From sequence record NC_005066.1: 64,000 nt of DNA, one strand, 5' to 3'. Within the stretch, counting starts at the first letter, position 1. Each line of letters starts with the position of its first letter. Under the pieces are notes generated by a model. The model ran no database searches and was not told where the DNA came from. It saw nothing but the letters and a program-made list of their open reading frames with translations. Below, piece after piece: positions 53,619-54,035 of this stretch. Source of the DNA: Escherichia phage RB49. Made by a program: the position numbers and the translations under genes.

Positions 53619-54035
53619 TTAGAGAGATTCGGTAAAGGTACGCGCGATAACGTCACGCTGCTGGTCTGGAGTCAGACTATTGAAGCGCACCGCGTAACCA
53701 GAAACGCGAATTGTAAGCTGCGGGTACTTCTCAGGATGTTCAACAGCGTCCAGCAACATTTCTCGTAACAATACGTTAATATTCAAATGCTGACCACCTT
53801 CAACAACCGGAGCACCATTATCTACAATGACAGGACGGAAGCTAGTTGTGTGCAGTGCCAGCGAATCGACGTCTTCGGCGGTGATCACATGGTCTTCTGC
53901 GAAAGTTTTACTAACAATTACTTTAGCGCCGATCAGTGCTTTCGGTTCTGATACCAGAATCATAGGCGCGAAGTGTCCACCGATAATAGTACCTTTATGC
54001 TCACCTTTCATGATTTGAATTGCTTTAAATTCCAT
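53619..54035 (-). CDS. autonomous glycyl radical cofactor (GrcA/YfiD-like)
   Basis: 138 aa; C-terminus [12 protein letters not shown]...[37 protein letters not shown] is a PFL-type glycyl radical domain. Confidence 0.8.

Follow-up and report, generated by a model that had tools for sequence, protein, structure and literature searches.

A GrcA-like glycyl-radical protein encoded by gene vs.6 of Escherichia phage RB49 and mosaicism of its 3' half in the Krischviruses

Results

Organization of the vs.6 locus

The window analyzed in this work is a stretch of 64,000 nucleotides (64 kb) from Escherichia phage RB49 (NC_005066.1). The open reading frame listing of this window places on its minus strand, at positions 53619..54035, a coding sequence with an ATG start that specifies 138 amino acids followed by a stop codon. 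An earlier note on the same DNA had read this gene, vs.6, as coding for a GrcA/YfiD-like autonomous glycyl-radical protein, and the peptide strings that it quoted are present exactly in the translation. Direct inspection of the sequence reveals a Shine-Dalgarno element (AAGAGGTG; 54040..54047, minus strand) located 4 nt 5' of the ATG and overlapping the stop codon of a 41-amino-acid ORF upstream. At the other end of the gene lies an intrinsic terminator (53575..53609, minus strand), comprising a 10-bp stem (AAGCCAATCC/GGGTTGGCTT) followed by TTTTCGTTTT. Its GC-containing hairpin (53609-53585) has a T-run behind it, and the predicted RNA fold has an energy of -16.4 kcal/mol (z=-3.5). The terminator is kept in Shigella phage JK32 and in Phi1, and the record of GEC-3S annotates it as 'terminator'. 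With its own Shine-Dalgarno element, stop codon and terminator, vs.6 encodes a small stand-alone protein of 138 residues, rather than the terminal part of a long glycyl-radical enzyme.

The genes immediately upstream of vs.6 are vs.8 and the 41-amino-acid ORF (54046..54662, minus strand), with stop and start codons that overlap or abut, and vs.6 is probably co-transcribed with both. A scan with the consensus sigma-70 motif (8 matches, with 5.3 expected) placed its best match inside vs.8 (54313-54285) and gave nothing convincing as a promoter immediately upstream of vs.6, and no instance of the late promoter TATAAATA was found between 48724 and 58890, that is, within 4 kb of vs.6. The gene is probably a minus-strand early-region gene that is read through from upstream. 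A sigma-70-like promoter with a TG element (TTGGCT-17-TATGAT; 53563..53591, minus strand) overlaps the vs.6 terminator and feeds nrdC.11. The combination of terminator and nrdC.11 promoter looks like a promoter-early/stem-loop (PeSL) cassette, which makes the site a putative member of the PeSL elements of Phi1 and RB49 that have been described as recombination sites (PMC2839356).

Other features were observed in the vicinity of these genes. The spacer from the endolysin stop to the vs.8 start holds a GGGGAGA...TCTCCCC hairpin (54674-54700, minus strand), which has no T-run behind it and is similar to the GGGG...CCCC stem-loops of the Phi1/RB49 PeSL cassettes. The endolysin (54719-55108, minus strand) belongs to Peptidase_M15_4 (L-alanyl-D-glutamate peptidase type, E=4.4e-12) and not to the T4 e-type lysozymes, a feature already known from the RB49 group. 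On the opposite side of vs.6, the region 51983-52812 (minus strand) contains a run of three adjacent small ORFs (64, 86 and ~111-130 amino acids), with counterparts in Phi1 ORF095-097, that have in common the motif ...Y.(F/Y)TP...DD.G..I.I.L..C(S/A)HL.G..W.L... and look like tandem paralogues.

Orthology and distribution of vs.6

The vs.6 neighborhood is preserved across the available Krischvirus genomes. A 2.2-kb segment encompassing the gene is 97-98% identical at the nucleotide level, and colinear in one piece, with 25 listed Krischvirus records (ELT3, kaaroe, Phi1, GEC-3S and others; 98% for the first three), and in several Krischvirus records the vs.6 ORF already bears the annotation 'autonomous glycyl radical cofactor'. 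Phi1 uses the name vs.6 for it, and there the order is regB ... nrdC.11 - vs.6 - ORF100 - vs.8 - endolysin, and its T4 namesake, annotated as GrcA, is found in the order regB ... vs.6 - vs.7 - vs.8. In the annotations of these two phages, the position within the T4-type early region (regB ... vs.6 ... vs.8) is therefore conserved. Judged by gene order and sequence, the RB49 ORF is the positional orthologue, in the Krischviruses (RB49/Phi1/JSE group), of T4 vs.6, which encodes the protein known as Y06I; the T4 homologue to which the earlier note alluded hence does exist.

Homologues are widespread among phages. TBLASTN searches identified them in 1,579 of 50,697 phage records, in several families, and the matches include T4-like and T5-like phages, one Vibrio phage and one Erwinia jumbo phage. 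Proteins of this kind are already known: work on Y06I of T4 dates from 2001, and in 2006 attention was drawn to vs.6 in RB49-type genomes, a Gly_radical match being reported for it in all six of the T4-like genomes compared (Nolan et al. 2006; PMC1524935).

Domain structure, family assignment and fold

The Vs.6 protein can be divided into a phage-type N-terminal half (residues 1-76; 53808..54035, minus strand), with low identity to GrcA, and a C-terminal glycyl-radical domain (residues 77-138; 53622..53807, minus strand). The latter contains the glycyl-radical loop R110-V-S-G113-Y114, the codons of which can be read directly at 53694..53708 (minus strand), with that of G113 at 53697-53699. Searches against Pfam detected the Gly_radical domain (PF01228) with an E-value of 2.3e-16 and a score of 60.7 bits, for a cutoff of 22.2. 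Residues 37-138 align with E. coli GrcA/YfiD, as solved by NMR (6OWR; E=7.8e-33), and the C-terminal domain matches residues 698-759 of PflB with an E-value of 7.6e-27. The whole protein matches PHROG 1209 (E=7.9e-51; residues 3-138 against positions 1-121 of the 121 in the profile). The data hence bear out the assignment to the small, GrcA/YfiD-like glycyl-radical proteins.

The closeness to the enterobacterial protein to which the earlier note had pointed is restricted to the C-terminal domain. Like E. coli GrcA, Vs.6 is a small stand-alone protein, and the two are 89% identical over the last 62 residues, with an identical 13-residue core in the glycyl-radical domain and an intact RVSGY loop in RB49, but the N-terminal 76 residues are only ~21% identical. 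The NCBIfam equivalog model for GrcA (TIGR04365; InterPro IPR011140) scores Vs.6 at 132.4 bits, under its 170-bit cutoff, due to this divergent N-terminal half, and the GrcA2 and GrcA3 models also fall under their cutoffs. This makes Vs.6 a GrcA-like homologue, rather than a strict equivalog of bacterial GrcA. With PflB (PDB 1H16), Vs.6 shares 79% identity over the 62 residues of the C-terminal domain, including the radical loop and the helix following it, but it lacks the ~700-residue catalytic barrel of the enzyme and can therefore act only as a replacement part. Within the 26 residues that PflB loses upon oxygen cleavage, Vs.6 matches GrcA at 25 positions and PflB at 20. Where E. coli GrcA reads RETLEDA, Vs.6 reads REMLLDA, presenting the M and the first L of PflB and a second L that is common to PflB and some enterobacterial GrcAs.

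Comparison with T4 Vs.6 outlined a similar division. Both proteins are encoded between regB and vs.8, belong to PHROG 1209, carry the N-terminal motifs KAxQI..G.HKGTI and IVSKTF.ED and end in a PFL-type domain with RVSGY. Identity is 85% over the last 62 residues (72% at the DNA level), compared with 29% amino acid identity in the N-terminal half. The RB49 protein is 18 residues longer than its 120-residue T4 counterpart, with ~12 of the additional residues in one insertion at ~20-31 and the rest at ~57-63.

In an alignment of 100 homologues, residues S112, G113 and Y114 are invariant, and so are H83, N85, R110, R117 and the RTFT motif. An AlphaFold2 model generated with this 100-sequence alignment presents a mean pLDDT of 79.9, reaching 85-92 in residues 91-130, and Foldseek searches of the PDB with this model returned 6OWR as the first match (E=3e-6), followed by the C-termini of several glycyl-radical enzymes (~1 Å rmsd over 41-43 residues). 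The N-terminal half is modelled as short strands (pLDDT ~80-88, with 59 for residues 21-30), for which Foldseek yielded only weak KOW/SH3-like matches in the PDB (probability of at most 0.33) and no convincing solved fold. Krischviruses differ from one another in this half almost exclusively by synonymous changes (e.g. 7 synonymous and 0 nonsynonymous), and, as judged from these substitution patterns, both halves of Vs.6 are under purifying selection.

Discussion

A putative spare part for host pyruvate formate-lyase

The E. coli YfiD and T4 Y06I proteins have been described as 'spare part' proteins that receive a radical from the PFL-activating enzyme (PFL-AE) and restore pyruvate formate-lyase (PFL) cleaved by oxygen at Gly734, according to PMC8683613 and a 2026 review (PMC13450708), both of which cite Wagner et al. 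2001 for it. The same two sources present YfiD and Y06I as the only validated examples of such proteins. The role in rescuing oxygen-damaged PFL that the earlier note proposed for this family is hence the one reported for its two characterized members in PMC8683613, and the RVSGYAV stretch of RB49 Vs.6 is identical to that of both. On these grounds, we consider it very likely that RB49 Vs.6 is a phage-encoded autonomous glycyl-radical cofactor that repairs oxygen-cleaved host PFL. The evidence on sequence, orthology, fold and selection comes from the present analysis, and the chemistry from what has been published on the proteins of T4 and E. coli; we infer both that RB49 Vs.6 would act as T4 Y06I does and that this activity would be of benefit during infection.

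In the proposed mechanism, the host radical-SAM activating enzyme PflA would remove a hydrogen atom from the RVSGY loop at Gly113, and the activated residues 77-138 would dock into a host PflB molecule that had its C-terminus cut off by oxygen at Gly734. The new radical site contributed by Vs.6 would then restore the conversion of pyruvate to acetyl-CoA and formate. Within the 64-kb window no phage PflA was found, nor was a PflA-like activase seen close to vs.6, and Vs.6 would therefore depend on the host enzyme. YfiD's N-terminal half matters for binding to cleaved PFL and for radical installation (PMC8683613), and the phage-type N-terminal half of Vs.6 presumably aids recognition of damaged PFL in the same manner. 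Given that this half is only ~21% identical to that of YfiD and carries extra residues, partner recognition could nonetheless differ. The phage would likely benefit from a continued supply of acetyl-CoA and fermentative energy when small amounts of oxygen reach the infected cell, in which synthesis of the host GrcA may have ceased. No report of an infection phenotype for vs.6 mutants under changing oxygen was found in the literature library searched.

Alternative functions and the question of host origin

The window also encodes, on the minus strand, the anaerobic ribonucleotide reductase NrdD (34525..36387; PF13597, E=1.1e-175) and its radical-SAM activase NrdG (32619..33128, with an uncertain start codon; Fer4_12, E=2.4e-43, and Phi1 annotation). 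The earlier note had invoked both genes, and an anaerobic or microaerobic theme based on the joint presence of vs.6, nrdD and nrdG is reasonable in terms of gene content, but the two genes are not adjacent to vs.6, lying 17-21 kb away. NrdD is also cleaved by oxygen at its glycyl radical, and Vs.6 could be conceived as a spare part for the phage NrdD, with NrdG as its activase. The NrdD protein bears at residues 592-596, around its radical glycine, the same RVSGY pentapeptide as PFL and GrcA, an early paper guessed a role for vs.6 in nucleotide metabolism (PMC1524935), and spare parts for other glycyl-radical enzymes have been considered conceivable (PMC8683613, PMC13450708). Nevertheless, a BLASTP comparison of Vs.6 with RB49 NrdD returned nothing beyond the pentapeptide (E=1.7), leading us to reject a sequence link between the two proteins, and the C-terminal domain of Vs.6 does not resemble the NrdD glycyl-radical domain. 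This domain is instead of the PFL type, 79% identical to the PflB C-terminus, which, together with the distance between the genes and the activity of T4 Y06I with PFL and PFL-AE recounted in PMC8683613, makes a role as NrdD spare part very unlikely. Phages often inhibit host metabolism, and a protein with a divergent and apparently structured N-terminal half might show altered binding behavior, so that Vs.6 could act as a decoy, soaking up host PflA or binding PFL to shut down or redirect fermentation, instead of repairing it. We assign a very low probability to this interpretation, since the catalytic loop and the helix following it are under strong purifying selection, beyond the needs of a mere binder, and the T4 orthologue is stated to restore PFL activity in vitro (PMC8683613). 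The dispensability of vs.6 in T4, established by genetics (PMC1524935), might in turn be taken to indicate a decaying remnant devoid of function. An intact reading frame furnished with its own ribosome-binding site and terminator, homologues conserved across several phage families in the 1,579 records noted above, and dN values far below dS in both halves leave a virtually negligible probability for this reading.

The earlier note had further suggested that vs.6 was recently acquired from the host. In favor of a recent capture of host grcA by RB49 are the 89% amino acid identity in the last 62 residues, a GC content of 45.8% (the second highest among the 71 ORFs of the window, which average 40.3 +/- 2.4) and the host-like 3' half of T4 vs.6 described below, which attests that such captures happen. 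At the DNA level, however, the last 61-62 codons are only 73% identical to E. coli grcA, with 45% identity at third codon positions, and Nei-Gojobori counts reveal saturation at synonymous sites (pS=0.77) against a pN of 0.09. BLASTN searches against 5,426 complete E. coli genomes yielded a best match of 74.6% over 185 nt, to pflB, and none above 80%, and among the best 80 bacterial grcA/pflB loci, drawn from 185,579 GTDB species representatives, the top nucleotide identity was 76.5%, with third-position identity of at most 57%. The N-terminal half is phage-type, sharing the aforementioned motifs with T4 Vs.6, and is about as GC-rich (44.7%) without any host DNA counterpart. Codon usage is also ordinary, with an index of 0.77, referenced to the window's own genes, for a window value of 0.748 +/- 0.035; the comparison of codon usage envisaged in the earlier note hence counts against a recent capture. 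The alignment with E. coli GrcA shows neither the low protein identity (89% in the C-terminal domain) nor the loss of RVSGY that the earlier note had named as grounds for giving up its reading, but recency fails on the DNA (73%). Based on these searches, substitution counts, GC content and codon index, we reject a recent host origin for RB49 vs.6, which we regard as exceedingly unlikely. Given the saturated synonymous sites and low DNA identity, the high protein identity is put down to an old phage gene having been held under strong purifying selection, illustrating that recent transfer cannot be deduced from very high identity to a host protein.

Mosaicism of the 3' half in T4 and the Krischviruses

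The notion of a recent acquisition does hold for T4. The 3' 185 nt of T4 vs.6 (nt 179-363) share 98.4% identity with grcA in all 5,426 E. coli genomes searched, and a comparison of the T4 gene (L003:7558-7920) with K-12 grcA (L002:2067-2450) gave pS=0.066 and pN=0.015, whereas the 5' half had no DNA match in the E. coli genomes. T4 vs.6 is thus a chimera, which suggests that its glycyl-radical half was recently exchanged for host DNA. The T4 3' half is hence essentially host grcA DNA, and that of RB49 is not.

Variation in the same half of the gene was also detected among the Krischviruses. Krischvirus-type Vs.6 proteins from metagenomes and GenBank are 87-100% identical to RB49 in the N-terminal half, but only 65-84% in the C-terminal half, and the C-terminal halves of the variants are patchworks of one another. 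In Shigella phage JK32 (L006:1501-2558, for ~53560-53830 in RB49), nt 1-206 of vs.6 are ~99% identical to RB49, after which identity drops abruptly to ~65% through the stop codon. It is regained at the terminator hairpin, and an extra gene encoding NUMOD4 (E=1.8e-18) and HNH_3 (E=2.5e-10) domains is found before nrdC.11. A NUMOD4/HNH gene of 175, 197 or 198 codons occupies the space between vs.6 and nrdC.11, at the equivalent of ~53565, in JSE (L094), phiS and seven metagenomic contigs (L007, L008, L009, L011, L012, L013 and L097). The JSE record annotates it as 'Homing endonuclease', and nine Krischvirus records in GenBank contain the 197-amino-acid version with at least 95% identity. The corresponding site of RB49 (53560..53570, ~53565 in the alignment) is empty, an allele shared by Phi1 and one window-type metagenomic contig. 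The spacer in which the insertion occurs, with its hairpin and early-type promoter, resembles the PeSL cassettes of Phi1 and RB49 (PMC2839356).

The boundaries of the divergent segments follow a consistent pattern. In eight endonuclease-carrying loci, the flanks are 93-100% identical to RB49 on both sides and in every case the divergent tract stops at the insertion, with a 5' end that varies from nt ~173 to nt ~330 of vs.6. In loci of the 197-amino-acid class, the RVSGYAV codons mark the exact start of the recoded core that they have in common, CGCGTTTCTGGTTACGCGGTG being changed to CGAATCAGTGGTTATGCTACC. The endonuclease gene adjoins a variant vs.6 3' half in 10 of the 11 alleles examined, and an absolute link between the two was rejected on account of the exception, a contig (L096, protein P0012) that lacks the endonuclease gene despite its variant 3' half and could be an immune allele left after endonuclease loss.

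Two further observations were made on these cassettes. The phiS-type vs.6 3' half (L009/L010) differs from RB49 at nearly every synonymous site, with a pS of 0.98, far exceeding the saturation point of the Jukes-Cantor correction (0.75). This value is partly a shift to lower GC3 (0.36 versus 0.48), and selection favoring the greatest possible divergence in DNA might be a further cause. In addition, a fragment of a T5-like Salmonella phage (OR845110.1) encodes a homologue of the 175-amino-acid HNH endonuclease (~41% identity) ~870 nt downstream of a GrcA-like gene and on the same strand (1690-2175 and 3042-3308 for the pair), which hints that the association of this endonuclease family with glycyl-radical cofactor genes crosses phage families.

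Free-standing homing endonucleases, such as those encoded by the seg and mob genes of T4, are known to operate in T4-type phages through 'intronless homing'. The Krischvirus NUMOD4-HNH gene resembles them in its location in a spacer by vs.6 and in the presence of a divergent tract within a background that is 93-100% identical, but RB49 itself differs in lacking the endonuclease gene and carrying the empty-site allele. Based on sequence comparison, the divergent tracts look as they would be expected to if a free-standing homing endonuclease, with a putative target within the conserved 3' portion of vs.6, had caused co-conversion around it. The co-conversion tracts would be of variable length, beginning as late as the RVSGY codons, and the recoded 3' halves of endonuclease-carrying genomes would presumably be immune to cleavage. 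We give even weight for and against the broader reading that the DNA of the glycyl-radical domain is a recurrent exchange cassette, swapped for host grcA in T4 and a probable target of the NUMOD4-HNH endonuclease in the Krischviruses, with RB49 carrying an endonuclease-free and presumably susceptible allele. Our search of the literature library found nothing specific on vs.6 mosaicism.

Overall, Vs.6 joins NrdD and NrdG among the accessories for anaerobic life carried by T4-type coliphages. If the exchange-cassette reading were true, a selfish endonuclease would be taking advantage of a metabolic repair gene where it is most conserved, and would be driving the mosaic evolution of that gene. 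The mosaic 3' half of the Krischvirus genes and the host-derived half of T4 vs.6 could provide a simple system for the study of intronless homing and of host-phage recombination at a conserved catalytic motif.
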